Positions 1,758-52,731 of a stretch of 64,000 nt of DNA are shown one piece after another. Origin of the DNA: an uncultured bacterium (lineage in GTDB: Bacteria; Bacillota_I; Bacilli_A; RFN20; CAG-826); contig CASFZN010000018.1 of NCBI GenBank assembly GCA_949299195.1, forward strand, positions 352,149 to 416,148, given 5' to 3'. The notes below the pieces were generated by a model. The model was not told where the DNA came from, searched no databases, and was given only the letters and a program-made list of their open reading frames with translations. The stretch's first letter is position 1. Every line of letters begins with the position of its first letter. Made by a program: the position numbers and the translations under genes.

Positions 1758-2138
1758 ATGTTTTGTAAATATTGCGGAAAACAAATCCCTGATGATGCCA
1801 ATGTTTGTCCATATTGCGGGAAAGAAACACACGCCAAAAAAAGTGAACCTGTTCAAGAGGTAGAAACTAAGAAGACTTCTGATAGTGCCCCACAAATTTT
1901 TGGTATTTTATCAATTGTAGCTCCATTTATTGGGCTATCATTTGTAGGAATTATTTTAGCAATCATCGGGTTATGTATTGATAAAAATAAAGCTTATAAA
2001 GGACTTAATGTTGCTGGGTTGATCATCAGTATCATTATCTTAATTTTAACTATTGTTCTTAGTATCGTTTACTTTATTTTAATAGCAAAATATATTGAAG
2101 AAAACCCAGGTGTTATTCCTCAATATCCATCTTTTTAA
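1758..2138 (+). CDS. zinc-ribbon (CxxC..CxxC) membrane protein, paralog 1
   Basis: MFCKYCGKQIPDDANVCPYCG then two TM helices; RBS aaaggagagag. Confidence 0.6.
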   Translation: MFCKYCGKQIPDDANVCPYCGKETHAKKSEPVQEVETKKTSDSAPQIFGILSIVAPFIGLSFVGIILAIIGLCIDKNKAYKGLNVAGLIISIIILILTIVLSIVYFILIAKYIEENPGVIPQYPSF

Positions 2139-2172: not shown

Positions 2173-2526
2173 ATGTTCTGTAGAAAATGTGGAAAAGAAG
2201 TAGCTGAAGACGTTAGATTTTGTCCAAATTGTGGCGAAGATCAATGGGAAGAAAGCGAAAAAGTAGAAGAAAAACCAGTAGAAATAAAGAAGGAAGAAAA
2301 ACAAGAATTAAGCGGTTTATTATTAGCTGCAAAAATCTTAATTATTATTTCAATGGTTCTTGCTTTCTGGGCAATTTATCCATTAGTTTTAGGTATTTTT
2401 GCTATTAAAGCAATTGAAAATAACAAAAATCCTAAAGATTTATTAACCTGGAGTATTGTTACTTTACTTTTACTTAATACTATTGCTGGAATTTTAATGC
2501 TTGTTTATTCTGTTAAAGATGAATAA
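2173..2526 (+). CDS. zinc-ribbon membrane protein, paralog 2 (tandem duplicate)
   Basis: MFCRKCGKEVAEDVRFCPNCG then TM helices; RBS agggag. Confidence 0.6.
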   Translation: MFCRKCGKEVAEDVRFCPNCGEDQWEESEKVEEKPVEIKKEEKQELSGLLLAAKILIIISMVLAFWAIYPLVLGIFAIKAIENNKNPKDLLTWSIVTLLLLNTIAGILMLVYSVKDE

Positions 2527-3977: not shown

Positions 3978-4349
3978 ATGAAAATAGTAGGCAATATATT
4001 TTGGTTTATATTTGGAGGAGCTATTTGGGCATTAGTTTCTTTACTAATTGGAGTTTTATGCTGTATCACCATCATTTTAATTCCGGTAGGAATAAAAATG
4101 TTTCATTTTGCAGGTTTTATAGTCGCTCCTTTTGGAAAACACGCTGAATATAATAAAGGAAATGCTGGGAAACTTGTTATTAATATTATTTGGTTAGTTC
4201 TTTTTGGATGGGAAACTATTATTTCCTATGCTTTAACGGGAGTAATTTTGTGTTGTACCATCATTCTTATTCCTTTTGGAATTCAATATTTTAAAACTAT
4301 TCCTTTCCTTACTCTTCCATTGGGGACAACTTTCGTTAAAGATAACTAA
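3978..4349 (+). CDS. YccF-like inner membrane protein (internally duplicated DUF307-type repeat)
   Basis: two repeats of '...LCC(I/T)TIILIP(V/F)GI...' separated by a loop; 123 aa. Confidence 0.55.
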   Translation: MKIVGNIFWFIFGGAIWALVSLLIGVLCCITIILIPVGIKMFHFAGFIVAPFGKHAEYNKGNAGKLVINIIWLVLFGWETIISYALTGVILCCTIILIPFGIQYFKTIPFLTLPLGTTFVKDN

Positions 4350-4408
4350 TAATTTAAAAATTAGAAATTAATTATATATCCTTTAATAAAGTATAATTTA
4401 ATTTATAA

Positions 4409-6694
4409 ATGAAAGAGATAATTAAGAAAGATTTATTTAATAGTATTGATTCTTTAACTAATTCATTAGATAAAGAATATATTTTTATAGGAGAATCTTC
4501 CTATAAAAATATTTTATTATCCTATAAAAGTAATAATCCTTCAAAGAATATAAGTTATATAGATAAGAATGAATTTATTAAAAATATTACTTTTGATTAT
4601 AGTGATAACACTTTAATTAAATATATTATTCATAACTATAACTATGATTATTTAAAAAGTAAGGAATTATTAAAACTATTAGCGCTTATAGATATTGAAG
4701 AATCTAATAAAATAGTAGGTATTAATAAAGAGATTAGAGACGTTATTAATATTAAAAAAGATTTAATAAATAAGGGATTAATAAGTAAGGAATATAATGA
4801 ATTAAGTTTAACTCATTATAATAAAGAAAATAGGAATAATATCGAAATAATTCTTTTTGAAATTAATGAATTAGATAGTGAATTTCTATCTCTTTTAAAT
4901 AGATTAAATATCGATATTTCAAAAAGAATTAACTTTATAAACTTAGACAGTGAAAATATTAATGAAGTTTTTAAAGATAAATACTTAATCTTTAAAAACA
5001 CAATTAAAGAGTTTCACTATCTATTTAGTGAAATTAAAAGAATGATTCAAAAAGAAAGAATAGATCCTTCAAAAATAGTAGTCTATATGAAGGAAGTAAA
5101 CCCTTTTTATTTAAGATATTTTGAGGAGTTATACGCCATTAAGACTAATTATAAAAAAGAGATTCCACTTTTATTTAATAGTGTATTAACTAACTTTTTG
5201 GAAGAAATTTATAGTAGTGGAAAAATTGAAAAACTCCCATTATTAGAAGAAAATAACGGACCTAAAAATGACTTTATCTTGATTCTAAATAATGTTATTG
5301 AATATTTTGAGTTAGACTCAATTAAAGATTTTAATAGTGCATTTTTATCTTTAAAAGAAATCTTAAATGAACTCACTAAAAAAGAAGAAAAAGAGAATGT
5401 TGAAACAATAAAAATCATAACTTCTTATAAATATTTAAATGATGATGAATATTTATTTGTTTTAGATTTTGTTCATAATTCAATCTATCAAGAAAACAAG
5501 GATAATAAGGTTATTACTGATATTTCTTTAGAAAAACTAAAACTTAACACTTCTTATAAAAATAACCTTATTAATCGAAGAAAAGCATTATATTTTTGTA
5601 GTTTTAACAACGTAAAAATGTTTTCAAGAAGAAAACTCCATCTTGATGACACTCTATTTGATTCCCAATTTGTCAATGAATTTAATCTAAAAGGAGAAGA
5701 AGTTCCTTTTAATACAAACGGCTTATATACCAATAAAGCTTTAGAAGCCTTAAAAACTTCAATTTTTGATGAAAAAAATTTAAATGAAAGTAAAGAAATT
5801 TTATCTTATAAAAAATACGATAAAAGCTTTAAATCGTTTAATTTTGATAAAGGTGAATCTTTTTCTTTAAGCTTAATTTCTTCCTATGATTCATGTCCTT
5901 TTAAATTTTATGTTGATAAATATTTAAAGGTAGATAAATCTGAATATGAATTTAGTGCTAAAATCGGAACTTTATTTCATGAAGTAATAGAAAAATATTT
6001 TATAAGTAGATATCAAGAAAGTATCGACAAATTATATAAAGAAACTTACTTAAAAATGGAAAAAGATTTTGATGAAAAAGAAAAGATGATTTTAAAATAT
6101 TCAATTCTTCCAAAATTTATAGAAAGCGTCGAAAAGGTATTAGAAGATTATAAACTTGATGAGATTAAGGGTTTCGAAGATGAAGTTATTCTTCAAATTC
6201 CTTATGAAGTTGATGGAAAAATTTCAACCATAAACGGAAGAGCTGATTTAAAAATTAATTATAATGACGGAAAATATTCGATAATTGATTTTAAAACCGG
6301 AAATGTTAAAAATTATAAATTTGCCGATGGCGATCGAACAAAAATTCAACTTCCTTTATACGCAAAATCTTTTATGTTAAAAGAAGAAGGTGAATCTTCA
6401 CTTAAAGAAGTTATTTATCAACCAATTCTTCAAAATGCGGTTTTTGGAGACCCTGAAATCAATCTTTCGGCTTTTAAAGCAAAATTTCAAAATGTTTCTT
6501 ATGCTAAAAAGGAATTAGAAAGTGAAATTTTAGATTCTACTGATAGAATGGTTGAAGGAATTTTACGCGATATTTCTCAAAATAAATTCTCTTTAATTCA
6601 AAATAGTGAAGGGGATGATGATTCTAATACATGTACATTCTGTTCCTATGGAGATATTTGTTATATAGATAAAATAAAGAGGAAGAAATGGTAA
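4409..6694 (+). CDS. addB: AddB/RexB-type subunit of helicase-nuclease (nuclease domain with Fe-S cysteines, no Walker A)
   Basis: C-terminal PD-(D/E)xK-like 'GRADLKI...IIDFKTG...QLPLYA'; Cys at 'SYDSCPFKF' plus 'CTFCSYGDIC' (C-x2-C-x5-C) resembling AddB Fe-S staple; directly upstream of addA. Confidence 0.7.
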   Translation: MKEIIKKDLFNSIDSLTNSLDKEYIFIGESSYKNILLSYKSNNPSKNISYIDKNEFIKNITFDYSDNTLIKYIIHNYNYDYLKSKELLKLLALIDIEESNKIVGINKEIRDVINIKKDLINKGLISKEYNELSLTHYNKENRNNIEIILFEINELDSEFLSLLNRLNIDISKRINFINLDSENINEVFKDKYLIFKNTIKEFHYLFSEIKRMIQKERIDPSKIVVYMKEVNPFYLRYFEELYAIKTNYKKEIPLLFNSVLTNFLEEIYSSGKIEKLPLLEENNGPKNDFILILNNVIEYFELDSIKDFNSAFLSLKEILNELTKKEEKENVETIKIITSYKYLNDDEYLFVLDFVHNSIYQENKDNKVITDISLEKLKLNTSYKNNLINRRKALYFCSFNNVKMFSRRKLHLDDTLFDSQFVNEFNLKGEEVPFNTNGLYTNKALEALKTSIFDEKNLNESKEILSYKKYDKSFKSFNFDKGESFSLSLISSYDSCPFKFYVDKYLKVDKSEYEFSAKIGTLFHEVIEKYFISRYQESIDKLYKETYLKMEKDFDEKEKMILKYSILPKFIESVEKVLEDYKLDEIKGFEDEVILQIPYEVDGKISTINGRADLKINYNDGKYSIIDFKTGNVKNYKFADGDRTKIQLPLYAKSFMLKEEGESSLKEVIYQPILQNAVFGDPEINLSAFKAKFQNVSYAKKELESEILDSTDRMVEGILRDISQNKFSLIQNSEGDDDSNTCTFCSYGDICYIDKIKRKKW

Positions 6695-23869: not shown

Positions 23870-25639
23870 ATGGATTTTTCAAGTTTAAGACACCAAACAG
23901 ATTCAAATTATTCTTATCCAAATAGTAATAATACAATTAACTTAATATTAGTAACTAAAAAGAATGATAATTTTAAGAAAGTCTTTCTTGTTTATCATGA
24001 AAAATATAAATTCACTAGAAGCGATGAACACTATGAAGTTGAGTTAACTTCTAAAGAAAGTGATGCATATAATGATTATTATAAAATCACGATAGCGGTC
24101 AATGATTTAAGATTTGGATACGTTTATAAATTTATAGATCATGATGATAAAATATATTACTATCATGAAAACGGAATTGAAAAAGAAGAGGACTTTAACT
24201 TTAAAGAAACTCATTATGATTTTTTCCAAGTTCCTTTCATTAATCCAATTGATGTAACAAGGGTTAATGAAAAGTTTAAAAATCGTGTATTTTATCAAAT
24301 TTTTGTAGATAGATTCTTTAGACCGGTTGATGCTAAAGAAAATACTAGAATTAATATTAAATGGAATGATAATAATGAAATTACTCCTAGAACTATTGCA
24401 GGAGGAACCTTAAAAGGAATTACTCAAAAATTAGATTATTTAAAAGAATTAGGTATTTCAGGAATCTATTTAACTCCTATTTTTGAAGCGTATTCTAATC
24501 ATAAATATGAAACGTACGATTATTATACGATTGCTAGTGATTTTGGAACTAAGGAAGATTTAAAAGAATTAGTAGAAAAAGCCCATAAATTAGATATTTT
24601 AATTGTACTTGATGGAGTATTTAATCACGTTGCTTTTTATCACCCTTTCTTTGAAGACGTTTTAACTTATGGGAAAGAATCTAAATACTATAACTACTTC
24701 ATGATTCATAATAATGATATAGAAGTAACCCTAAAAAAGAAAAATTTTGAAAGTTTTGGCTATGGTTTTCAAATGCCAAAACTTAATATGTCTAATCTAG
24801 AAGTGCAAGAATATTGTGTAAATGTTTTAAAGTATTATAAAAAAGAATTTAATATTGATGGATTTAGACTTGATGTAGCAGATGAAGTTGCTCATTCTTT
24901 TTGGAAATACGCTAATAGAGAACTTAAAAAGATTGATAAAGATAATTTCATGATTGCTGAAAACTGGCATGATGCACATTTATATTTAGATAATAACGAT
25001 GAATTTGATAGTGTTATGAATTATTCGTTGTTAAGTTATATTTTAAAATATGTTGCTGCTAATAAATTAACTAGTGAAGAATTTAAAAATGGATTAGTTA
25101 ACCTTAAATATCGCTATAAAGAGAATACCAATCATAACTTATTAAATCTTCTTGATAGTCATGATACTAAAAGATTTTTAAACTATTGTGATAAAAATGA
25201 AGATAAGTTTCTTTTAGGATTTTCCATTCTCTTTTTATGCAATGGCACCCCTATGATTTATTATGGCGATGAAACTGGACTAAGTGGAGAACACGATCCA
25301 CATTGTAGAAAGATGTTTAACCGGGAAGATACTGATGTCTATAATAAAAAAATAAGCGATAAAATGCGCAAAATTATCGATTTAAGAAATAAGGAACTAT
25401 TAAATGGATATGACTTTAAAATTGATTATATTAAAGAAAAAGATTATTTAGAAATTACTCTTTCTAAAGATGAAGGAAATAAGGTAATTAAAGCTTTAAT
25501 TAACTATAACTATAAGAATCCAAAAACTATTAATCTTATAGATTTAATTCCTAATACTTCTGAAATTCTTTATTCGTTAAATTATGATAATAAAGAAAAA
25601 GACCTATTTAATTTAGGAATAGTGGTATTTAAAAATTAA
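23870..25639 (+). CDS. GH13 alpha-amylase family enzyme (neopullulanase / cyclomaltodextrinase-like)
   Basis: GH13 regions 'YQIFVDRFF', 'DGVFNHV', 'GFRLDVADEV', 'LLDSHDTKR'; N-terminal domain typical of CDase/neopullulanase; 589 aa. Confidence 0.8.
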   Translation: MDFSSLRHQTDSNYSYPNSNNTINLILVTKKNDNFKKVFLVYHEKYKFTRSDEHYEVELTSKESDAYNDYYKITIAVNDLRFGYVYKFIDHDDKIYYYHENGIEKEEDFNFKETHYDFFQVPFINPIDVTRVNEKFKNRVFYQIFVDRFFRPVDAKENTRINIKWNDNNEITPRTIAGGTLKGITQKLDYLKELGISGIYLTPIFEAYSNHKYETYDYYTIASDFGTKEDLKELVEKAHKLDILIVLDGVFNHVAFYHPFFEDVLTYGKESKYYNYFMIHNNDIEVTLKKKNFESFGYGFQMPKLNMSNLEVQEYCVNVLKYYKKEFNIDGFRLDVADEVAHSFWKYANRELKKIDKDNFMIAENWHDAHLYLDNNDEFDSVMNYSLLSYILKYVAANKLTSEEFKNGLVNLKYRYKENTNHNLLNLLDSHDTKRFLNYCDKNEDKFLLGFSILFLCNGTPMIYYGDETGLSGEHDPHCRKMFNREDTDVYNKKISDKMRKIIDLRNKELLNGYDFKIDYIKEKDYLEITLSKDEGNKVIKALINYNYKNPKTINLIDLIPNTSEILYSLNYDNKEKDLFNLGIVVFKN

Positions 25640-25646
25640 GTATTAT

Positions 25647-25690
25647 AAAAACCCTATAAACTGGTTATCAGCTTATAGGGTTTTATTTTT
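25647..25690. terminator. bidirectional terminator between convergent amylase and nrdD
   Basis: aaaaCCCTATAAactggttatcagcTTATAGGGtttt. Confidence 0.55.
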
Positions 25691-25712: not shown

Positions 25713-28148
25713 CTATTTTTCAATTTCATCGATATAATCGACAATTTTTGATAAGGAAGTAATGGTTTCTTCTTTTCCATTATTAACAACTAATAATGTT
25801 GGAGCACTCATTACGTGATATTTAGAAACTAAATCTTCACTCTTAGATGCATCAATTTCTTCAAATTCAATGTTCTTTTCTTTAAAGATATCTTCAACCA
25901 TCTTACAGTTACTACATGTTGGAGTAACAAATAATTTATATTGGATGTTTCCATCTTTTGTATTATCGACATCTAATTTGACATCATGTTCAACACCTTT
26001 ATTTTCATTAAAGATAGGAGAAGAAGTTTTAATTTCTTCGATAGGTCCTTTATGTTTTAAAACTGAAGTATTGATGTTGTAAGTTTTTCTTTCTTTGAAT
26101 TCTTGGCTCTTACCAACATTCCAGTTTTGAACTGGGCGGTAATATCCAGTAATTCTAGAATAAACTTCAGTTTTTTGATGACAATGAGGACATTCATAGC
26201 GTTCACCAATTAAGTATCCATGTTCTTTACAAACAGAATATGTTGGAGACATGGTGTAATAAGGAAGTTTATAATTTTCAGCAATCTTTCTGACTAAATT
26301 AGCTGTTGCTTTCCAATCTGGTAATTTTTCACCTAAGAAGGTATGGAAAACAGTACCAGAGGTGTAAAGAGTTTGTAATCTATCTTGAATATCAAGGGCA
26401 CTAAAGACATCGTCAGTATAAGAAACTGGGAGGTGAGAAGAGTTGGTGTAATATGGTCTTCCATCTTCCATTCCGCTAGTAATAATATCTTTAAATCTTT
26501 CCTTATCATGTTTTGCTAATCTATAGGCTGTTGATTCAGCTGGAGTAGCTTCAAGGTTATATAAATCTCCGTATTCTTCTTGATATTTAACAAGTCTTTC
26601 TCTCATGTGATTTAAAACATTAACAGCAAAATCTTGAGCTTCTTTATGAGTTAAATCACATCTTAACCATTTAGCATTTAAACAGCATTCATTCATACCG
26701 ACAAGTCCAATAGTAGAGAAGTGGTTATTGAATGTTCCTAAATAGTGTTGAGTATAAGGATATAAGCCAGCCTCTAAGAGTTTAGTGATGACTTCTCTTT
26801 TCATCTTTAAGCTTCTTGCGGCAACATCCATTAAATGATCAAGTTTTTTATAGAACTCTTCTTCGTTATTAGATAAATATGCAAGTCTTGGTAAATTGAG
26901 CGTAACAACACCAACACTACCTGTAGATTCGCCACTTCCAAAGAAGCCGCCTGATTTCTTTCTTAATTCTCTTAAGTCGAGTCTTAATCTACAGCACATA
27001 CTTCTAACATCGCTTGGTTCCATATCACTATTGATATAGTTAGAGAAATATGGAGTTCCGTATTTAGCGGTCATTTCAAATAATAATTTATTATTTTCAG
27101 TTTCACTCCAGTCAAAATCTCTAGTAATAGAGTAAGTAGGAATTGGATATTGGAAGCCTCTGCCATTAGCGTCGCCTTCAATCATGGTTTCAATAAATGC
27201 TTTATTGACCATATCCATTTCTTTTTTACAATCCTTATATTTATAAGGCATAAGTTTTCCGCCAACAATACAGTATTCTTCTGCTAAATCTGGTGGAACA
27301 ACCCAGTCGAGGGTAATATTTGTAAATGGAGCTTGAGTTCCCCATCTAGATGGGATATTTAAACCAAAAACAAAGGATTCAATGCATTTTTTGGTTTCTT
27401 CATAAGTTAAGTTATCTTCTTTAACAAATGGAGCTAAATAGGTATCAAAAGAGGAGAATGCTTGAGCACCAGCCCATTCGTTTTGCATAATACCAAGGAA
27501 GTTAACCATTTGGTTACAAAGGGTTGATAAGTGTTTTGCTGGAGCACTAGTGATTTTACCTCTAACTCCGCCTAAACCTTCTTTAATTAATTGTTTTAAA
27601 CTCCAACCAGCACAATATCCACTTAACATTGATAAATCGTGTAAATGAATATCAGCATTACGGTGAGCGTTAGCAATTTCTTCGTCATAAACTTCATGTA
27701 ACCAGTAGTTTGCAGTAATTGCACCACTATTTGATAAAATTAAGCCACCAATTGAATATGTGACAGTTGAGTTTTCTTTAACTCTCCAGTCGATATTGTT
27801 TAAGTATTGGTCAACTGTTTTCTTATAGTCTAAAGTTGTTTCTTTAATATTTCTGATATTTTCGCGATTTTTTCTATATAAAATATAGCTTCTAGCAACA
27901 TCACTATAGCCAGCTTCCATTAAAGTTTCTTCAACTAAATCTTGGATTTGTTCAACTGTAATAAGTGAAGAATCGGTTTTAGTTGGGAATTTGGAAGTAA
28001 CTTTTAAAGCTAATAAATCGATAATATCTTCATCAACTCTACGATCTACTGATTCAAAAGCTTTTTTAATAGCATTACTGATTTTGTTAAGTTCAAAGTC
28101 AACAGTTTTGCCATCTCTTTTAACGACTTTAATCTTGGTATAGCTCAT
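25713..28148 (-). CDS. nrdD: anaerobic ribonucleoside-triphosphate reductase (class III) with N-terminal ATP-cone and extra C-terminal glutaredoxin/NrdH-like CxxC domain
   Basis: ATP-cone 'KVVKRDGKTVDFELNKI'; 'CCRLRLDLRELRKKSGGFFGSGESTGSVGVVTLNLPRLA'; Zn-site 'CKEHGYLIGERYECPHCH'; glycyl-radical 'SRITGYYRPV'; then 'LFVTPTCSNCKMVEDIF...VMSAPTLLVVNNG'; RBS aaaaaaggagaaatt. Confidence 0.9.
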   Translation of the reverse strand: MSYTKIKVVKRDGKTVDFELNKISNAIKKAFESVDRRVDEDIIDLLALKVTSKFPTKTDSSLITVEQIQDLVEETLMEAGYSDVARSYILYRKNRENIRNIKETTLDYKKTVDQYLNNIDWRVKENSTVTYSIGGLILSNSGAITANYWLHEVYDEEIANAHRNADIHLHDLSMLSGYCAGWSLKQLIKEGLGGVRGKITSAPAKHLSTLCNQMVNFLGIMQNEWAGAQAFSSFDTYLAPFVKEDNLTYEETKKCIESFVFGLNIPSRWGTQAPFTNITLDWVVPPDLAEEYCIVGGKLMPYKYKDCKKEMDMVNKAFIETMIEGDANGRGFQYPIPTYSITRDFDWSETENNKLLFEMTAKYGTPYFSNYINSDMEPSDVRSMCCRLRLDLRELRKKSGGFFGSGESTGSVGVVTLNLPRLAYLSNNEEEFYKKLDHLMDVAARSLKMKREVITKLLEAGLYPYTQHYLGTFNNHFSTIGLVGMNECCLNAKWLRCDLTHKEAQDFAVNVLNHMRERLVKYQEEYGDLYNLEATPAESTAYRLAKHDKERFKDIITSGMEDGRPYYTNSSHLPVSYTDDVFSALDIQDRLQTLYTSGTVFHTFLGEKLPDWKATANLVRKIAENYKLPYYTMSPTYSVCKEHGYLIGERYECPHCHQKTEVYSRITGYYRPVQNWNVGKSQEFKERKTYNINTSVLKHKGPIEEIKTSSPIFNENKGVEHDVKLDVDNTKDGNIQYKLFVTPTCSNCKMVEDIFKEKNIEFEEIDASKSEDLVSKYHVMSAPTLLVVNNGKEETITSLSKIVDYIDEIEK

Positions 28149-28232: not shown

Positions 28233-28937
28233 TTAATCAATGCCTCTTAATTCACACGGAATTGAGTATTCATCAATAACGATTCTTTTAAATTCTTCTA
28301 AGATTTCTTTATTCCGTGAAGAATATCCCTCTTTGACGATATTAAATTCATTCTTTTTGAATTGTTGGAGGAAATATCTTTTACTTCCTTTTAACAATTC
28401 TCCAATTTTTCTAATATCTCCATGACTATGTAATTCCTTAACGATAGTGGTTCTAAATTCATAGTCGATATCGCTATTTTTAATATATTCTATTGAGGAA
28501 GTGATGTTTTTGATGCCGATTTCATTTAATCCAACTGTAGTATGATATTTTTCTAAAGAGTTTTTAATATCCATAGCGATATAATCAACAAGTTTTAGAT
28601 CAATAATCTCTTTTAATTTGGAAAACAAGTAGCCGTTGGTATCTAACTTAACTTTATATCCTAATTCTTTAACTTTTTTTATAAATGGAATTAGATCTTT
28701 TTGAAGTAAAGGCTCTCCTCCAGTGATACAGATTCCATCCAATAAACCAACTCTTTTCTTTAAAAAGTCTAAGATTTCACTTTCATCAATGATTTCGTTA
28801 TTAGAGGGAGCTATAACGAGTGACGAATTGTGACAATATGGACATCTAAAGTTACAACCGTTAGTAAAGAAGGTAGCAGCTGTATATCCTGGAAAGTCTA
28901 ATAAAGTTAATTTTTGATAACCTACAATTTCAATCAT
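28233..28937 (-). CDS. nrdG: anaerobic ribonucleotide reductase activating protein (radical SAM)
   Basis: 'FPGYTAATFFTNGCNFRCPYCHN' CxxxCxxC; 'ITGGEPLLQ'; immediately upstream of nrdD on the same strand. Confidence 0.85.
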   Translation of the reverse strand: MIEIVGYQKLTLLDFPGYTAATFFTNGCNFRCPYCHNSSLVIAPSNNEIIDESEILDFLKKRVGLLDGICITGGEPLLQKDLIPFIKKVKELGYKVKLDTNGYLFSKLKEIIDLKLVDYIAMDIKNSLEKYHTTVGLNEIGIKNITSSIEYIKNSDIDYEFRTTIVKELHSHGDIRKIGELLKGSKRYFLQQFKKNEFNIVKEGYSSRNKEILEEFKRIVIDEYSIPCELRGID

Positions 28938-29370: not shown

Positions 29371-29446
29371 GGTTCGCTAGCTCAGCTGGCAGAGCAACTG
29401 ACTCTTAATCAGTGGGTCCGGAGTTCGAATCTCCGGCGAATCACCA
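29371..29446 (+). tRNA. tRNA-Lys (anticodon CTT), CCA encoded
   Basis: acceptor ggttcgc/gcgaatc, anticodon loop cTCTTaa, canonical T-loop ttcgaat. Confidence 0.9.
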
Positions 29447-29455
29447 TCAAATAAA

Positions 29456-29488
29456 TTAAAAGTTGGCCTAATTGGCCAACTTTTTATT
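29456..29488 (+). terminator. intrinsic terminator after tRNA-Lys
   Basis: aaaAGTTGGCCtaattGGCCAACTtttt. Confidence 0.6.
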
Positions 29489-29522
29489 ATCTATAATTAA
29501 CAATTTTTATATAATAATTGCT

Positions 29523-30206
29523 ATGAGCTGGGATAATTTTTTTAATAGCATAAAGACTAAAGATTACTATCAAGAATTAATGAAATTTATTGATAAAGAA
29601 TATTTAGAGAATGTTTGCTATCCTCCAAAAGAGTTGATTTTTAATGCGTTTAAACTAGTAGATCCTAAGGATATTAAGGTAATAATCATTGGTCAAGATC
29701 CATATATTCATAAAGGAGAAGCTATGGGTTTAGCCTTTAGTGTAAATGAAGGAATTAAACTCCCCCCATCTTTAAGAAACATCTATAAAGAAATAGAAAA
29801 TGAATTTAATATAGCTATGGATTATAATTCAGGGGATTTAACTTATTTAGCTAAACAAGGAGTCTTCTTAATTAATCCAATTTTAACGGTTAGAGAAGGT
29901 AAATCCTTATCTCATAATAACGCCTTATACCAAGAATTATTTAAAGATTTATTCGAGTATATCGATACTTTTTTAACTCAACCTCTAGTAATAATGTTAT
30001 GGGGAAATAAGGCTAAAGAATATAAAAAATATATTACAAATAAAAATAAAAATATGCTTGTTTTAGAATCTTCTCATCCGTCTCCATTAAGTGCAAATCA
30101 AGGAGGTTGGTTCAATTCAGGAATATTTATTAAAACTAATGAATATTTAGAAAAAAATAATATTAAAAAGATTTCATGGGCTAACTCCATCTTTCATCTT
30201 GACTAA
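29523..30206 (+). CDS. ung: uracil-DNA glycosylase (family 1)
   Basis: 'IIGQDPYIH', 'HPSPLSA'; N-terminus 'MSWDNFF...DYYQEL'; ORF-track TTG start at 29472 lies in the tRNA terminator and is rejected. Confidence 0.85.
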   Translation: MSWDNFFNSIKTKDYYQELMKFIDKEYLENVCYPPKELIFNAFKLVDPKDIKVIIIGQDPYIHKGEAMGLAFSVNEGIKLPPSLRNIYKEIENEFNIAMDYNSGDLTYLAKQGVFLINPILTVREGKSLSHNNALYQELFKDLFEYIDTFLTQPLVIMLWGNKAKEYKKYITNKNKNMLVLESSHPSPLSANQGGWFNSGIFIKTNEYLEKNNIKKISWANSIFHLD

Positions 30207-30235
30207 TCTTAATCTATAATTATTTTTGTAGATAA

Positions 30236-30330
30236 AGTTATGGGGGCTTGTGATACAGGCTGAGATAAAAGTAGTTACTTTTGACCATTTAACCTGATCT
30301 AGGTAATTCTAGCGTAGGTAAAACTCTTTT
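30236..30330 (+). promoter_or_regulatory. TPP (thiamine pyrophosphate) riboswitch aptamer
   Basis: tgGGGGcttgtgataCAGGCTGAGAtaaa...ttgACCatttAACCTGATCTaGGtAATtCtAGCGTAGGtAAaa matches the THI-element consensus (CUGAGA, ACCUGAUCU, AGCGUAGG). Confidence 0.8.
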
Positions 30331-30379
30331 TTATTGGATAAAACTAATTAAATAGTAGTCCTTAAAAATAATTAAAGAA

Positions 30380-30444: not shown

Positions 30445-31569
30445 ATGATAGATGAAATTAAAAAAGAAAATGATATTACTGATAATTCTTCGACAACAGT
30501 ATCGAATAAAAAGTTTGATATTTATCGAGGAATTATAGGAATAGTTTTACTATTGGCAACTTACATATTTTTAGTTACTGATGGTTTTACGCTTTCAACT
30601 TTAAATGAAGAAGAAGTCACTCTTTCTTTATTTGATGCAATATTTGGAAATAGTGAATTAAAAATAGGATTAAATCCAATTGGATTAACTAGTTTTATTT
30701 TAATTTCTTGTGCAACTTTGTTATTTATTGTTGGATTTATTTTTAAAATAATAGGAAATAAAAAAGCATCAAACAGCTTATTTATTTCTTCATCAATTAC
30801 ATTATTTCTAGGATATATTTTCTATTTAGCAATTATTTATACATTTTATTATGTAGTTCCAGGAGCTAGTGAGATTATACCTTCTGAATATGGGATATAT
30901 TTTGTTACTCCATCAATGATAATTTATTCGGTAATTATCGCAATTTCTTTAATTATGATTTTAGCTTCTATTGAAAGAAAAGATGGCAGTAAATTTAAGG
31001 TAAAAGAGATTTCAGAATTAGCAATGATGGTTGCTTTAGCAATAGTTTTAGATCAATTTGTAAAAATTCCAATTGGTTCTACCGGAGGAAGTATTAACTT
31101 TTCCGCTTTTCCTTTAATGATATATGGGATTAGACATGGCTTTCTTAAAGGAATATTAGCTAGTTCAATCATTTTTGGAATTATTACGAATTTAATAGAT
31201 GGTTATGGTCTTTTATGTTATCCATTTGACTATTTAATTGCCTTTTTAGGATATGGGTCTAGTGGCTTATTCTATTACATTTTTAAGTCCACTATTTTTA
31301 AGAATAAATCGAGCGAAAATGACAATTTAATTTTGATTATTATCTCTTTAATTTTAGGAGCAATCACCTTATTTATTATAAGAATGATTGGTTCAACCAT
31401 GTCTTCGATGATTCTTTGGGAATATGAACTTGGCGCTGCTTTACTTTATAACATTTTATATGTTGGTCCTAGTGCCTTGGGATGTTTAGTAATTTCATTA
31501 CTTTTATCTCCTGTTATCAATATGATTAATAAAAGGCAAAAAACTTCTTATTTAGAAAAATTAGCATAA
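30445..31569 (+). CDS. TPP-riboswitch-controlled polytopic membrane protein; C-terminal half resembles an ECF-transporter S-component (ThiT-like), putative thiamine/precursor transporter
   Basis: 374 aa, about 10 TM helices; second half 'MMVALAIVLDQFVKIPIGSTGGSINFSAFPLMIYGIRHGFLKGILAS' S-component-like; directly downstream of riboswitch. Confidence 0.5.
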   Translation: MIDEIKKENDITDNSSTTVSNKKFDIYRGIIGIVLLLATYIFLVTDGFTLSTLNEEEVTLSLFDAIFGNSELKIGLNPIGLTSFILISCATLLFIVGFIFKIIGNKKASNSLFISSSITLFLGYIFYLAIIYTFYYVVPGASEIIPSEYGIYFVTPSMIIYSVIIAISLIMILASIERKDGSKFKVKEISELAMMVALAIVLDQFVKIPIGSTGGSINFSAFPLMIYGIRHGFLKGILASSIIFGIITNLIDGYGLLCYPFDYLIAFLGYGSSGLFYYIFKSTIFKNKSSENDNLILIIISLILGAITLFIIRMIGSTMSSMILWEYELGAALLYNILYVGPSALGCLVISLLLSPVINMINKRQKTSYLEKLA

Positions 31570-41432: not shown

Positions 41433-43570
41433 ATGAATTTAAAAACCTTACTCAACGATAAACAATACGAAGCTGTAACTTCTTCATTTAAATATAATAG
41501 AATTATAGCTGGAGCAGGAAGTGGTAAAACCCGTGTTTTAACCTACCGTCTTGCACATTTAATTAATGATAAAAATATTGATCCTTATAACCTTTTAGCA
41601 ATTACTTTTACTAATAAAGTTGCAAAAGAAATGTTAAATAGAACCGAAGAATTACTCGGAAACATCGATATTAGTAGTTTAAAAATATCTACCTTCCACT
41701 CTTTTTGTAGTTATTTTTTAAGAAACGAAATCTATCACATCAACTTTCCTAGATCTTTTGTAATTATTGATGATAATGAAAGTGAAAACATGATTTATTA
41801 TTCCTTTACTAGTTTAGGTCATGAGATTAAAAAAGGAGATACCTTAGTTAAATCCACCATTAGATTTATTGCTAAAAATAAAACTAAAGGCCTTCTTCCT
41901 AGCGATATCAAAGAAGAAGATTTAGTTAGTGAAGAAATGAAAATCATGTATGAAGCTTTTAAAGAATATGAAAAAAATAAAGTTAGAAGTTATGCTTTAG
42001 ATTTTGATGATTTACTTATTTATACCGCAATATTTTAAGAGAATTTAGTGACGTAAAAGAAAAATATAATACTCGCTTTAAAGAGATTTTAGTCGATGAA
42101 TTCCAAGATACAAACGATTTACAGTTTAAACTTTTAACTCTTTTAGTAGGAAAAGACACAGGGCTTTATGTTGTAGGAGATCCTGATCAAACTATCTATA
42201 CCTGGAGAGGCGCTAATTTAAGAGTTATTTTAGATGTAGAAAAATATTTTAGGGGCTTACAAACTTTTATTTTAGACGAAAACTATCGTTCAACTAAAAA
42301 TATTTTAACCGCTGCTAATAAGCTTATTATTCATAATGCTGAAAGGGTAAAAAAAGATTTATTTACTAAAAACGAAAGTCGAGAAGAAGTAAGCTTTTTT
42401 ACAGCCCAAACTGATTTTGAAGAAGCTAGAAAAGTCGTTCAAAAAATACGTGAATTAACTGTAAAAAACGATGCAAAATATTCGGAAATTGCCATTCTTT
42501 ATCGATCGGCATATCTTTCTCGTCCTTTCGAACAAATTTTAATGAAAGAAAGAATTCCATATCGCGTTTATTCAGGAACAAAATTCTATGATAGAAGAGA
42601 AGTTAAAGATGTTTTAGCCTATCTTTCTTTATTAACTAATCCCAAAAACGATGTAGCTTTTGAAAGAGTTTATAACGTTCCTAAAAGAGGAATTGGAGAT
42701 GTTTCGTATGCAAAATTTAAACAAGAAGCATATGAATTAAACTTAAATTTATATCAATACGCTTTAGATTTATATAAATATGATTCTGAGGTTAGTAAAA
42801 AATCTCAAAATGCCTTATCTACCTTTGTTTTAAAATTAGAAAAAGCTAATGATTTACTTGAAGGAGAACACACTTCTCAAGAATTTTCTGGCATAATGCT
42901 CGACTTTTTAAATGACATTAAATATTTTGACTATCTTCAAGAAAATGAAGAAGATGGCGATGATAGAGCTTTAAACGTCAGATCTTTAATTAGCGATATT
43001 GCTAATACAGTAACTGGAAAAAATGCGATAAGTATCGAAGAATATTTACAAAACGTTACTTTATTAACTTCTCAAGATGATATTGTTAATGATGGTGATT
43101 CAATCACTTTAATGACCTGCCATACTGCTAAGGGTTTAGAGTTTAACTATGTTTTCGTAGTTGGATTAAATAAAGATGTTTTCCCAAATTATCGTGCTCT
43201 TCAAGAAGGAAAAGAAAGAGAAGAGGAAGAAAGAAGATTAGCCTATGTTGCCTTTACTCGTGCTAGAAAAATACTCTATTTATCTTGTAATTTAGGGCAT
43301 TCATTTATTAGTGGCACCACTAATGAAGTTTCTCAATTTGTTATTGAAGCCGGATTATCGCTTAAACCTAAAAACTCCTTTATCAAGGTAGGAAAAGAAA
43401 ATTTATATTCTTTCGATTTTAATAAATTTATGGAGGAAAAGAAAAAAATCGAAGAAGAAGAGCGAAAAGAAAGAGTTATAGGAACTTCATTTAAAAATAA
43501 TATAAAATGGAGTGTAGGCGATTTGATAAATCATAAAACTTTTGGAAAAGGAAAAATCAATAAATTATAA
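41433..43570 (+). pseudogene. UvrD/PcrA-type helicase paralog (pcrA-1) disrupted by a -1 frameshift in the T4 run at 42033-42036
   Basis: N-terminal 201 aa with 'IAGAGSGKTRVLTYR', stop at 42036; frame +2 continues 'REFSDVKEKYNTRFKEILVDEFQDTN...VVGDPDQTIYTWRGAN...ENYRST...TCHTAKGLEF...LAYVAFTRARK'; colinear and about 65-70% identical to intact pcrA at 50515. Confidence 0.7.
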
Positions 43571-50514: not shown

Positions 50515-52731
50515 ATGAATTTTGAACGAGAACTAAATGATAAACAATATCTTGCAGTAACAACGAAAGAAAAATATAACCGTATAATTGCTGGTGCAGG
50601 TAGTGGAAAAACTAGAGTATTAACATATCGATTGGCCTATTTATTAGAAAAAAGAAATATTGACCCATTTAATCTTTTAGCGATTACTTTTACAAATAAA
50701 GCTGCTAAAGAGATGAAAAATAGAACAATTGATTTATTACCAACTTATAATTTAAAAAACTTACAGATTTCAACTTTTCATTCTTTCTGTAATTATTTAT
50801 TAAGAAGAGAAATTAAAGTTTTGGGATTTCCACAATCTTTTTCGATTTTAGATGAAAGCGATACCGAATTATTATTAAAAAATATTGCCGAAGAGCTAGG
50901 ATATGAAAAAAACGGACCAACTTTTGATTATGCTTTAAAATTTATAAGTGCAAGCAAAACAAAAGGGAAACTACCTGGTGATATAAAGGAAGAATTTTTG
51001 AATGATTTATCAAAAAAAGCTTTAACAATGTTTAAAGAATATGAAAAAAGAAAGAACGAACAATTCTCTTTAGATTTTGATGATTTACTCATATATACAG
51101 TACTGATTTTATCTTCTTACCCTAATATAAAAGAAAAATATAATAATCGATTTAAAGAAATCTTGGTTGATGAATTTCAAGATACAAATGATATTCAATT
51201 TAAATTATTAACTTTACTTGCTGGAGAAAATACATCTATTTATGTAGTTGGTGATCCTGATCAAACAATTTATACTTGGAGAGGAGCTAATCAAAAAGTT
51301 ATTTTAGATTTTGATAAATATTTTTCTCCGCTTAACACAATAATATTAAACGAAAATTATCGTTCAACAAGCGCTATTTTAAATGTTGCAAATACTTTGA
51401 TTGCTAAAAATGTCGAAAGGGTAAAAAAAGATTTATTTACAAATAATTCTAAAGGTGTTGATGTAATTTGCCATGAAGAATTTTCTGATCAAGAAGAAGC
51501 TAGGTGGGTAGTAAAGAAAATAAACGATTTAAAAAAGATTAAAAACGTAAAATTAAAAGATATCGTTATTTTATATAGAAGTTCATATATTTCAAAAACA
51601 TTTGAAAAAGTCTTGATGGAAAATAGAATTTCTTATCGAGTATATGGCGGGCTTAAATTCTATGATAGAAAAGAAATTAAAGATTCTTTGGCTTATTTTT
51701 ATTTATTATTAAATGATTTAGATGACATTTCCTTTTTAAGAATCGTAAATGTTCCTCGTAGAAGTATAGGAGATGTATCATTATCAACGCTCAAAAAAGA
51801 AGCTAGAAATGAAAATTTATCATTATATAAATATTCTAAAGATATAGATAAATATAATTCATTACTTTCGCCACGTGTTAAAAACTCGCTGTTTAATTTA
51901 GTGCAAATTATTGAAGAATATAAAATAAAAGTTAATGATAAAAATATATCTTATTCAGAAGTCTTAGATGCTTATTTAAAAAAGCTTGGCTATTATGATT
52001 ATTTAATTAATGATGATGATTCGGACGGGGAAAGAATTGCTAACGTTAAAACATTAATTGATGATATTCGAACTTATTTAAAAGAAAATCCTGAATCTTC
52101 TTTAGATGAATATATGCAAAATATTACTTTATTAACTTCTCAAGATGCGATAATTGATAACGAAAACACTTTAACTTTAATGACTGTACATACAGCAAAA
52201 GGTTTAGAGTTTGATTATGTTTTTGTTGTTGGGTTTGAAGATACAGTGTTCCCTTCTTATAAATCTGTTTCTGAAAACGGCAATAAAGGATTAGAAGAAG
52301 AAAGAAGGCTTGCCTATGTTGCTTTTACAAGGGCTAAAAAAGAATTATATATAACTTATAATAAGGGATATTCTTATATTGCAAAAACTTCACACATTCC
52401 TTCAAGATTTATTAAAGAATCTGGAATATATAGCATTGATTCAAGTTTTGAAAGAGATTTAAAACGTTATGATTCTTCATCAACTGTTTATAAAATTAAT
52501 TTTAATAGCAAAGAATCTTCTAGAAGAGTAAGTGAAGGAAGAAATTCAACTATTATTTCTTATCAAGTTAATAAAAATAATAATTGGGCGGTAGGCGATA
52601 ATTTAACTCATGATGCTTTTGGAGAAGGAAAAGTAATCGGTACTGATGGAGACGTCATTATTGTTGATTTTGCAAATTTCGGTGTTAAAAAAATGCTGGC
52701 TACACATCATATGTTGCATAAAAAGGAATAA
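50515..52731 (+). CDS. pcrA: ATP-dependent DNA helicase PcrA (intact)
   Basis: 'IAGAGSGKTRVLTYR', 'VDEFQDTND', 'VVGDPDQTIYTWRGA', 'ENYRST', 'TVHTAKGLEF', 'LAYVAFTRAKK'; followed by ligA as in Bacillus; start chosen by alignment with paralog (MNFERELNDKQY). Confidence 0.9.
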   Translation: MNFERELNDKQYLAVTTKEKYNRIIAGAGSGKTRVLTYRLAYLLEKRNIDPFNLLAITFTNKAAKEMKNRTIDLLPTYNLKNLQISTFHSFCNYLLRREIKVLGFPQSFSILDESDTELLLKNIAEELGYEKNGPTFDYALKFISASKTKGKLPGDIKEEFLNDLSKKALTMFKEYEKRKNEQFSLDFDDLLIYTVLILSSYPNIKEKYNNRFKEILVDEFQDTNDIQFKLLTLLAGENTSIYVVGDPDQTIYTWRGANQKVILDFDKYFSPLNTIILNENYRSTSAILNVANTLIAKNVERVKKDLFTNNSKGVDVICHEEFSDQEEARWVVKKINDLKKIKNVKLKDIVILYRSSYISKTFEKVLMENRISYRVYGGLKFYDRKEIKDSLAYFYLLLNDLDDISFLRIVNVPRRSIGDVSLSTLKKEARNENLSLYKYSKDIDKYNSLLSPRVKNSLFNLVQIIEEYKIKVNDKNISYSEVLDAYLKKLGYYDYLINDDDSDGERIANVKTLIDDIRTYLKENPESSLDEYMQNITLLTSQDAIIDNENTLTLMTVHTAKGLEFDYVFVVGFEDTVFPSYKSVSENGNKGLEEERRLAYVAFTRAKKELYITYNKGYSYIAKTSHIPSRFIKESGIYSIDSSFERDLKRYDSSSTVYKINFNSKESSRRVSEGRNSTIISYQVNKNNNWAVGDNLTHDAFGEGKVIGTDGDVIIVDFANFGVKKMLATHHMLHKKE

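Follow-up and report, generated by a model that had tools for sequence, protein, structure and literature searches.

A class III ribonucleotide reductase with a C-terminal thioredoxin-fold domain attached, encoded in the genome of an uncultured member of the Bacillota

The window analysed here is a stretch of 64,000 nucleotides (~27 % G+C) from an uncultured bacterium (assembly GCA_949299195.1, contig CASFZN010000018.1, positions 352,149 to 416,148 of the forward strand). It contains an nrdG-nrdD operon for an anaerobic, class III ribonucleotide reductase (RNR) and its activase. The 811-aa NrdD continues past its catalytic part into a linker and a thioredoxin-fold domain with a CxxC motif, and this tail probably serves the enzyme as its own tethered reductant. 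The features of the locus are the following.

23870..25639, + strand: alpha-amylase gene (GH13), convergent with nrdD, the next gene past the hairpin
25649..25685, no strand assigned: 16-bp hairpin with T-runs on both sides, a bidirectional terminator by RNA folding
25713..28148 including the stop, − strand: nrdD, 811-aa class III RNR with C-terminal thioredoxin fusion (Pfam NRDD, NCBIfam PRK08270)
25716..25943, − strand: thioredoxin-fold domain, residues 736-811 (Pfam, AlphaFold2 model of the tail, Foldseek)
25944..26072, − strand: linker, residues 693-735 (low conservation, substitution rates, low model confidence)
26073..27776, − strand: catalytic barrel and glycyl-radical domain, residues 125-692 (alignment to Thermotoga maritima NrdD)
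27861..28133, − strand: ATP-cone, the allosteric activity site, residues 6-96 (Pfam PF03477, E=1.6e-25)
28233..28937, − strand: nrdG, radical-SAM activase of 234 aa with the cluster motif CNFRCPYC (NCBIfam TIGR02495 NrdG2)

The open reading frame (ORF) of nrdD was continuous over 811 codons with neither a stop nor a frameshift inside, and a ribosome-binding site (aaggag) was located 8 nt ahead of the ATG. The protein was assigned to NrdD by Pfam PF13597 NRDD (residues 125-690, E=8.7e-193, 642 bits with a cut-off of 26.2), by NCBIfam PRK08270 (1137.6 bits, cut-off 548), a model of 684 positions that stops at residue 692, and by TIGR02487 (518.9 bits, cut-off 326). The first gene of the operon, nrdG, is found on the same strand 84 nt upstream of nrdD, and its TIGR02495 score (215.7 bits, cut-off 131) identified it as the cognate activase of a class III NrdD. 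Downstream of nrdD, the hairpin at 25649..25685 had a folding energy of −21.3 kcal/mol (z = −5.5), and none of 200 shuffled sequences folded equally well. This terminator closes the operon after nrdD, ahead of the convergent amylase gene and with no trxB in between, and the operon consists here of nrdG and nrdD only. Rfam gave no match upstream of nrdG, where no search aimed at NrdR boxes was made. A perfect 11-bp palindromic hairpin (AAAAGTTGGCC...GGCCAACTTTT) was observed in the intergenic sequence upstream of nrdG at 29458-29484, directly past a tRNA gene (29371-29443, + strand). It was scored as a terminator on both strands and insulates the nrd operon from the divergent tRNA gene and the ORF at 29472-30206.

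A first-pass annotation of this DNA had proposed an NrdD with a fused C-terminal glutaredoxin/NrdH-like CxxC domain at 25713-25955. These positions correspond to residues 732-811 and the stop codon, that is, to the redoxin domain, and the fusion was confirmed as one 811-aa frame with a tail that matches thioredoxin-fold families of Pfam. Both of the strings quoted there were found, SRITGYYRPV at residues 664-673 and LFVTPTCSNCKMVEDIF...SAPTLLVVNNG at residues 739-792, and the 'about 130' residues said to follow the former is a fair estimate of the 138 counted. The NrdD family models reach only to residues 690-692, which leaves a true extension of ~119 residues, a linker of ~43 followed by a domain of ~76.

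In the whole protein, the Pfam thioredoxin-fold match was located at about residues 738-795. When the 80-aa tail segment was scanned alone, Thioredoxin (E=1.2e-8), Glutaredoxin (1.5e-8) and Thioredoxin_3 (1e-7) all exceeded their gathering cut-offs, and the concern that the tail might match no thioredoxin-fold model was thereby removed. The redox motif of the tail is C745-S-N-C748, and P783 in S-A-P-T is the predicted cis-Pro, its conformation being taken from homology. An AlphaFold2 (AF2) model of the tail alone, with a predicted local distance difference test (pLDDT) of 86 and a predicted template modelling score (pTM) of 0.72, displayed the topology beta-alpha-beta-alpha-beta-beta-alpha. 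In the numbering of this model, C19/C22 (= C745/C748) are at the start of helix 1 (20-31) and P57 (= P783) directly precedes strand 58-63. Thioredoxin-fold dithiol oxidoreductases are marked by a CxxC where helix 1 begins and by a cis-Pro loop ahead of strand 3, and the tail has both. The 50 listed Foldseek matches in the PDB were thioredoxins, thioredoxin domains of the protein disulfide isomerase type or thioredoxin-based designs (prob 1.0, TMq 0.61-0.77).

The kind of redoxin was narrowed down by comparing family models. The best solved relatives of the tail by sequence were thioredoxins, with 'VMSIPTLLVLKDG' of the Bacillus subtilis protein opposite 'VMSAPTLLVVNNG' of the tail, and around the cis-Pro the tail reads MSAPTLLV and Bacillus thioredoxin MSIPTLLV. 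PF00085 Thioredoxin scored 35.3 bits (cut-off 23.5), and PF00462 Glutaredoxin 29-35 bits (cut-off 22.9) with a match that spans just the model's N-terminal two-thirds. On the tail, the specific glutaredoxin models of NCBIfam failed (GRX_bact 17.3 with a cut-off of 90, GRX_euk 15.1 with a cut-off of 87). Classical glutaredoxins dependent on glutathione (GSH) have the signature CPYC, a TVP cis-Pro and GG-x-dD. No GSH-binding motif was evident in the tail, where the cis-Pro context S-A-P-T-L-L-V is that of thioredoxins. The NrdH-redoxin model TIGR02194 reached only 23.4-26.3 bits with a cut-off of 85.75, the motif is CSNC or CPNC and not the C-V/M-Q-C of NrdH, and the tail has no WSGFRP-like segment. 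Because the NrdH model and the specific glutaredoxin models fail and the 50 listed structural matches are all of thioredoxin type, the predicted domain is a compact thioredoxin without the N-terminal beta-alpha unit of classical thioredoxins. The thioredoxin fold in the earlier proposal was thus upheld, and its likeness to NrdH was not.

Relatives were collected in a scan of one genome per species, which gave at least 598 genomes with relatives. An ortholog set of 200 sequences was made from the best 120 protein clusters (72-100 % identity) and the best 80 of these genomes (68-73 %), all 68-100 % identical to the query. The best 120 clusters were all 798-813 aa long with redoxin Pfam domains beside NRDD in all but one (precomputed annotations), and the best 80 genome matches all aligned through residues 789-811. 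An in-frame tail with a CxxC was present in 200 of 200 orthologs, as CPNC in 170 and as CSNC, the type of the window enzyme, in 20. The same fusion is therefore found in relatives, and the tail is not a mis-joined ORF. The finger loop RSMCCRL was likewise found in all 200. Genomes with a fused NrdD include Faecalibacterium, Pseudoflavonifractor phocaeensis, Ruminococcus turbiniformis, Lachnospiraceae, Christensenellaceae, Erysipelotrichaceae, Acidaminococcaceae and Lentisphaeria, and the closest genomes listed were Clostridia, Erysipelotrichaceae or 'Bacillales' metagenome-assembled genomes of ≤73 % identity. In the databases the fused proteins are labelled 'anaerobic ribonucleoside-triphosphate reductase' or not at all, and the architecture is abundant in public sequence data. 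In one fused NrdD of 1314 aa (P0215; finger loop RSMCCRL, CxxC of the tail CPNC), the NRDD domain was observed to harbour an intein, which contains an HNH endonuclease and a NUMOD3 motif.

Conservation was unevenly distributed along the protein. The mean column conservation was 0.92 in the core, 0.85 in the glycyl-radical domain, 0.35 in the linker (693-735) and 0.61 in the redoxin domain, and the linker columns had 37 % gaps and many indels. In an alignment of 47 sequences, the invariant residues of the redoxin domain were L739, F740, T742, T744, C745, N747, C748, A767, V774, A782, P783 and L785. The ratio of nonsynonymous to synonymous substitution rates (dN/dS), calculated against the two closest orthologs with DNA at hand and approximate because dS was near saturation, was 0.09-0.11 in the core, 0.12-0.32 in the ATP-cone, 0.88-1.0 in the linker and 0.23-0.39 in the redoxin domain. 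The low value in the redoxin domain compared with ~1 in the linker marks the tail as a selected domain on a tether of unconstrained sequence. A full-length AF2 model built on the 47 sequences was of low confidence (pLDDT 56, pTM 0.42; pLDDT <50 over residues 660-732), and just its per-residue confidence and the secondary structure of tail and linker were used. The linker is a flexible, unstructured tether of variable length. It was also considered as a redox relay by Cys and His residues, as subgroups show the consensus HxxxCxCxxH and a few sequences an extra CxxC. This idea was rejected: the linker in the window has zero Cys and lacks these motifs, which are therefore not a general feature of fused NrdDs.

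The active site was assigned by a residue-by-residue phmmer alignment to T. maritima (Tm) NrdD (4coi/4u3e). Y178-C179 aligned with Tm Y124-C125, where C179 is the Cys of strand beta-A at a universally conserved position, and the finger loop M384-C385-C386-R387 aligned with Tm S328-C-C-R331 and has the double Cys (xCCR) of thiol-type NrdDs. E533, in the segment YNLEATPAE, aligned with Tm E495 (Nb E438 in Neisseria bacilliformis) and is the active-site Glu. Class III subunits have a C-terminal glycyl-radical motif (RxxGY) behind a Zn-ribbon, and here G668 in S664-R-I-T-G668-Y-Y follows the Zn site C640/H643/C653/C656. The key active-site residues, E533 among them, and those of the Zn site and the glycyl radical were all invariant in the 47-sequence alignment.

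Class III enzymes were sorted by Burnim et al. 2022 with the finger-loop motif, its leading Met and the active-site Glu as markers (PMC9669993). MGCR enzymes are formate-dependent, and those that combine SCCR with the Glu, N. bacilliformis NrdD for one, are thioredoxin users; the 83 % 'MCCR' majority is formally ambiguous, formate and thioredoxin both being possible in principle (PMC9669993). The counterpart of Met384 forms a thiosulfuranyl radical in the formate-dependent NrdD of E. coli (PMC9669993). T. maritima NrdD was not active with formate and needed a protein of >10 kDa, and its mutants C329A and C330A were inactive (PMC4493059). The window enzyme is of the MCCR + Glu type. The first-pass annotation had suggested a check for the extra active-site Cys versus the formate-type Met. 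The extra Cys (C385-C386) and E533 are present, but so is Met384, and since the finger loop holds both, this comparison gives no clean answer. The hallmarks of the thiol type (C179, C385-C386 and E533) are all there, but with Met384 retained the enzyme may also use formate.

The flanking ORFs of the 80 genome loci were clustered. A homolog of nrdG was found ≤3 ORFs upstream of nrdD in 63 loci, and immediately upstream on the same strand in 55 of them. In 52 of the 80 species-level genomes, a gene for a thioredoxin-reductase-like (TrxR-like) protein of ~302 aa was found at +1 of the fused nrdD on the same strand, with gaps of −20 to +292 nt. The members of this cluster, with their QNLxxxT majority, are located in the loci L004-L080, for example at 5128-6033 of L005 and 8401-9345 of L004. 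Against TIGR01292 the type with HRR scored 352 bits and passed the cut-off of 343.45, whereas the type with QNL scored 334 and was slightly under it. The redox motif CAxC was present in 54 of 55 cluster members and GxGxxA in most, but the motif for the 2'-phosphate of NADPH, HRRxxxR, was seen in only 13, and 34 had QNLxxxT instead. Absence of the NADPH motifs is the defining mark of reductases other than the NADPH-dependent thioredoxin reductases (NTRs) (PMC10880999). The loss of HRRxxxR prompted the idea that the operon reductase is a clostridial flavin thioredoxin reductase that depends on ferredoxin (FFTR). This identity was rejected, as GxGxxA is kept and the FFTR structures 6gna-6gnd (127-132 bits) were much weaker matches than ordinary NTRs (243 bits), which were the nearest solved structures. 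With HRRxxxR mostly gone but GxGxxA kept and NTRs nearest, the electron donor may be NADH, ferredoxin or another. Judged by these motifs, the operon-linked genes may constitute an uncharacterised non-NADPH class of TrxR dedicated to RNR. The gene context is the strongest support for reading the tail as a tethered reductant.

A scan of viral contigs revealed 12 fused nrdD genes and, in addition, unfused relatives ending near residue 690, which keep the CC finger loop and the Glu and of which several have Leu for the Met. On the phage contig L098, a 70-aa CPNC redoxin has a gene of its own, which shares 4 nt with the start of an unfused nrdD, so that the two are translationally coupled. This nrdD has no ATP-cone and its core is 76 % identical to the window enzyme. 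The pair is a two-gene counterpart of the fusion and the sole verified split case. In another viral locus, L091 (IMGVR_UViG_3300007296_000237, nrdD at 3995-6202), the core is also 76 % identical, and ~40 unrelated residues follow past residue ~693. The ORFs behind this nrdD had no BLAST match to nrdG, TrxR or the redoxin tail, and the 3' linker and tail of a once-fused nrdD may have been replaced, for example at a prophage junction. We noticed that C211 of the window enzyme (codon 27516-27518, − strand) is a Cys in every fused NrdD and, within the loci L085-L106, also in the split L098 and the truncated L091 relatives; six other unfused relatives have Val or Ile, a pattern confounded by phylogeny. 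From this distribution, C211 could be co-evolving with the dedicated redoxin as a docking or relay residue.

An exhaustive phmmer search with the tail alone gave many short matches to proteins of 75-140 aa. Remnants of the NrdD glycyl-radical domain were carried by 23 of the top 150 tail homologs. Three homologs that appeared to be free-standing were traced to their contigs (four loci) and were fragments of fused nrdD or located beside nrdD, their separate entries going back to an N-gap in a scaffold, to frameshifts or to the edge of a contig. The derivation of the tail from a widespread free-standing redoxin was therefore dropped. Because these traced homologs are all nrdD-linked, the CPNC redoxin subfamily looks NrdD-specific wherever the context is readable. 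In annotation, contig ends and scaffold gaps often turn the tail into a small 'glutaredoxin/thioredoxin' gene that is spurious.

The enzyme is probably a thiol-type class III glycyl-radical RNR in which the tail is a tethered, dedicated disulfide reductant, and its cycle may be depicted as follows: NrdG would install the glycyl radical on G668, from where the radical would move to a finger-loop Cys (C385 or C386). The ribonucleoside triphosphate would be reduced using the Cys pair of C179 and the second finger-loop Cys, with E533 as acid/base, and an active-site disulfide would be left behind. The mini-thioredoxin with C745/C748 would then swing on its unstructured linker of ~43 residues and, by thiol-disulfide exchange, return this disulfide to the reduced state, acting within its own subunit or across the dimer on the partner. 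The oxidised domain would be recycled by a low-molecular-mass flavoprotein of the thioredoxin reductase type, which in about two-thirds of the related genomes would be the one encoded directly after nrdD, in a module nrdG-nrdD::trx-trxB, and in the lineage of the window one encoded elsewhere in the genome. That the attached redoxin is the dedicated reductant had been suggested by the first-pass annotation, and the suggestion is probably right: the conserved CxxC and cis-Pro, the purifying selection, the TrxR-like gene in 52 of 80 genomes and the split version all point to it.

Several observations weigh against this assignment of function. Conservation counts over the 80 genomes and 120 clusters are not phylogenetically independent, given their identity of 68-100 % to the query. 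No trxB adjoins nrdD in the window or in the closest clade (CSNC type), and no TrxR gene adjoins any of the 12 fused genes on viral contigs. Met384 is kept in all fused enzymes, and absence of this Met is what distinguishes the thioredoxin-only type (PMC9669993). The full-length AF2 model is too poor for judging whether the tail docks at the active site or where C211 lies. To reach the disulfide, thioredoxin would also have to enter a barrel that the glycyl-radical domain plugs, a puzzle that applies equally to the characterised NrdD2 enzymes.

Two of these observations, the conserved Met384 and the missing operon-linked TrxR in the lineage of the window, would be accounted for if the tethered thioredoxin served activation or maintenance. 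It would then keep the Zn-site Cys (C640, C653, C656) or other NrdD thiols reduced for NrdG, with formate as the nucleotide reductant via Met384, a role of most weight in gut anaerobes that have suffered oxidative insult. The attachment of the domain straight after the Zn-ribbon/glycyl-radical domain agrees with such a role, and an activating role of thioredoxin is reported for the formate-dependent class III RNR of E. coli in work cited in PMC4390871. This alternative is nevertheless unlikely. The fusion was seen just on enzymes with CC and Glu and never on MGCR enzymes (200/200 orthologs, 12/12 viral fused genes and P0215), a dedicated, co-transcribed TrxR in 52 of 80 genomes fits a stoichiometric reductant better than occasional repair, and unfused close relatives without the Met (RSLCCRL, RALCCRL) indicate that the lineage can dispense with the formate-type residue.

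The exact combination of MCCR and Glu discussed by Burnim et al. (PMC9669993) could also belong to a dual-reductant enzyme that takes formate or thiols, the tethered thioredoxin being a reserve or a route for certain conditions, such as an idle pyruvate formate-lyase. This is less probable still, as formate use has yet to be demonstrated for any double-Cys NrdD and T. maritima NrdD did not work with it (PMC4493059). That the tail is an artefact of annotation or assembly (a small redoxin gene wrongly joined to nrdD) or an appendage in decay and without function is excluded: some database entries show the redoxin as a separate small protein, but those checked were due to scaffold gaps, frameshifts and contig ends, the frame is continuous in the window and in all 200 orthologs from independent assemblies, and the redoxin domain has a dN/dS of 0.23-0.39 with invariant catalytic residues.

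If the tethered-reductant reading is extended to the whole family, nrdG-nrdD::thioredoxin(-trxB) might be the main anaerobic machine for dNTP synthesis in many gut Clostridia, Erysipelotrichia-like Bacilli and Lentisphaeria, and in some of their phages. It would be a self-contained redox wire from a donor over a TrxR variant without NADPH binding and the tethered thioredoxin to the active-site disulfide. We advance this wider proposal tentatively, with somewhat more doubt than belief. Were it true, the large MCCR majority of double-Cys class III RNRs would be thiol-driven and not formate-driven, which would settle the ambiguity left by Burnim et al. 2022. The tethered domain would be a handle for trapping the so far unseen encounter complex of thioredoxin and NrdD, and C211, which is a Cys just in the presence of a dedicated redoxin, would be a candidate for a role in docking or relay.

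The reductant of most class III RNRs is an open question; assays cover only a few of these enzymes, and the majority of double-Cys NrdDs have the residues of both the formate and the thiol route. A tethered thioredoxin with its usual reductase neighbour would be a natural label for the path that electrons take physiologically in a very large clade, and the fusion lets the question be tested with one recombinant protein and a few point mutants. NrdD-thioredoxin fusions are common among gut bacteria. In dominant anaerobes of the gut they mark a pathway that is essential and sensitive to oxygen, and the reductase partner is often without a canonical NADPH site.

Some further features were observed elsewhere in the window. 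A thiamine pyrophosphate (TPP) riboswitch at 30230-30338 (+ strand; Rfam RF00059, 67.8 bits, gathering cut-off 54.3) is located ahead of an ORF of 374 aa at 30445-31569 (+ strand). This ORF has long hydrophobic stretches and could encode a transporter of thiamine or a thiamine precursor. The adjacent ORFs 41433-42038 (+ strand, 201 aa) and 42542-43570 (+ strand, 342 aa) resemble pieces of a second helicase copy, and the N-terminal sequence of the former, including the Walker-A segment AGAGSGKTRVLTYRL, is common to the intact 738-aa ORF at 50515-52731 (+ strand); the two may be a disrupted paralog or pseudogene. The small tandem ORFs 1758-2138 (+ strand, 126 aa) and 2173-2526 (+ strand, 117 aa) have near-identical N-terminal zinc-ribbon motifs and start with MFCKYCGK...CPYCGK and MFCRKCGK...CPNCGE, respectively.

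The accessible literature yielded no account of an NrdD with a thioredoxin at its C-terminus, nor of an operon nrdG-nrdD-trxB. Wei et al. 2014 (PNAS) and 2015 (Biochemistry) are outside that coverage, and priority is therefore uncertain. The sole published mention found of a redoxin fused to NrdD is a table line, 'Glutaredoxin:NrdD' for Lachnospiraceae bacterium TWA4 (WP_082039398.1, subclass NrdDd), a single RefSeq sequence listed in Table S1 of PMC6187632 and not studied there. Its notation is the same as that of the N-terminal Glutaredoxin:NrdB fusions in the table, and the entry is known here from that line alone.

Among characterised systems, the thioredoxin-dependent 'NrdD2' enzymes of N. 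bacilliformis and T. maritima (4u3e/4coi) share with the window enzyme the double-Cys finger loop, the beta-A Cys, the active-site Glu and activation of the NrdG type. N. bacilliformis NrdD uses thioredoxin and TrxR (PMC4493059, PMC9669993), and turnover by a protein dithiol and not by formate would by this likeness be expected for the window enzyme. The NrdD2 enzymes, however, work with thioredoxin as a free protein, and their SCCR loop has no Met, whereas the window enzyme has MCCR, a covalent C-terminal redoxin and an N-terminal ATP-cone, and it is distant in sequence from T. maritima NrdD (154 bits). In Methanosarcina barkeri, the nrd operon of NrdD3, as Wei et al. 2015 are cited in PMC5704485, contains an NrdH-like redoxin and a ferredoxin:disulfide reductase. 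According to that citation, a class III RNR has there, too, a dedicated operon redoxin and a non-standard disulfide reductase that is not an NADPH-TrxR, but the redoxin is separate and the reductase is an Fe-S ferredoxin:disulfide reductase, whereas the fused-NrdD family has a low-molecular-mass flavoprotein of the TrxR family. NrdD3 is without both the Glu and the Met (PMC9669993).

The principle of a reductant built into the RNR polypeptide was established by the class I Grx::ATP-cone::NrdB of Facklamia ignava (Rozman Grinberg et al. 2018), in which the fused glutaredoxin (Grx) is an efficient reductant of its own holoenzyme (PMC6187632). There the redoxin is N-terminal on the radical-generator subunit of a class I enzyme, whereas in the window it is C-terminal on the catalytic subunit of a class III enzyme. 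The F. ignava domain is of the GSH-dependent GrxC type and that of the window thioredoxin-like, and the class I target, the C-terminal Cys pair of NrdA, has no counterpart in the window enzyme. The fused NrdD is in this company a class III RNR of the thiol type with its probable reductant attached, and it belongs to a large family that is uncharacterised.

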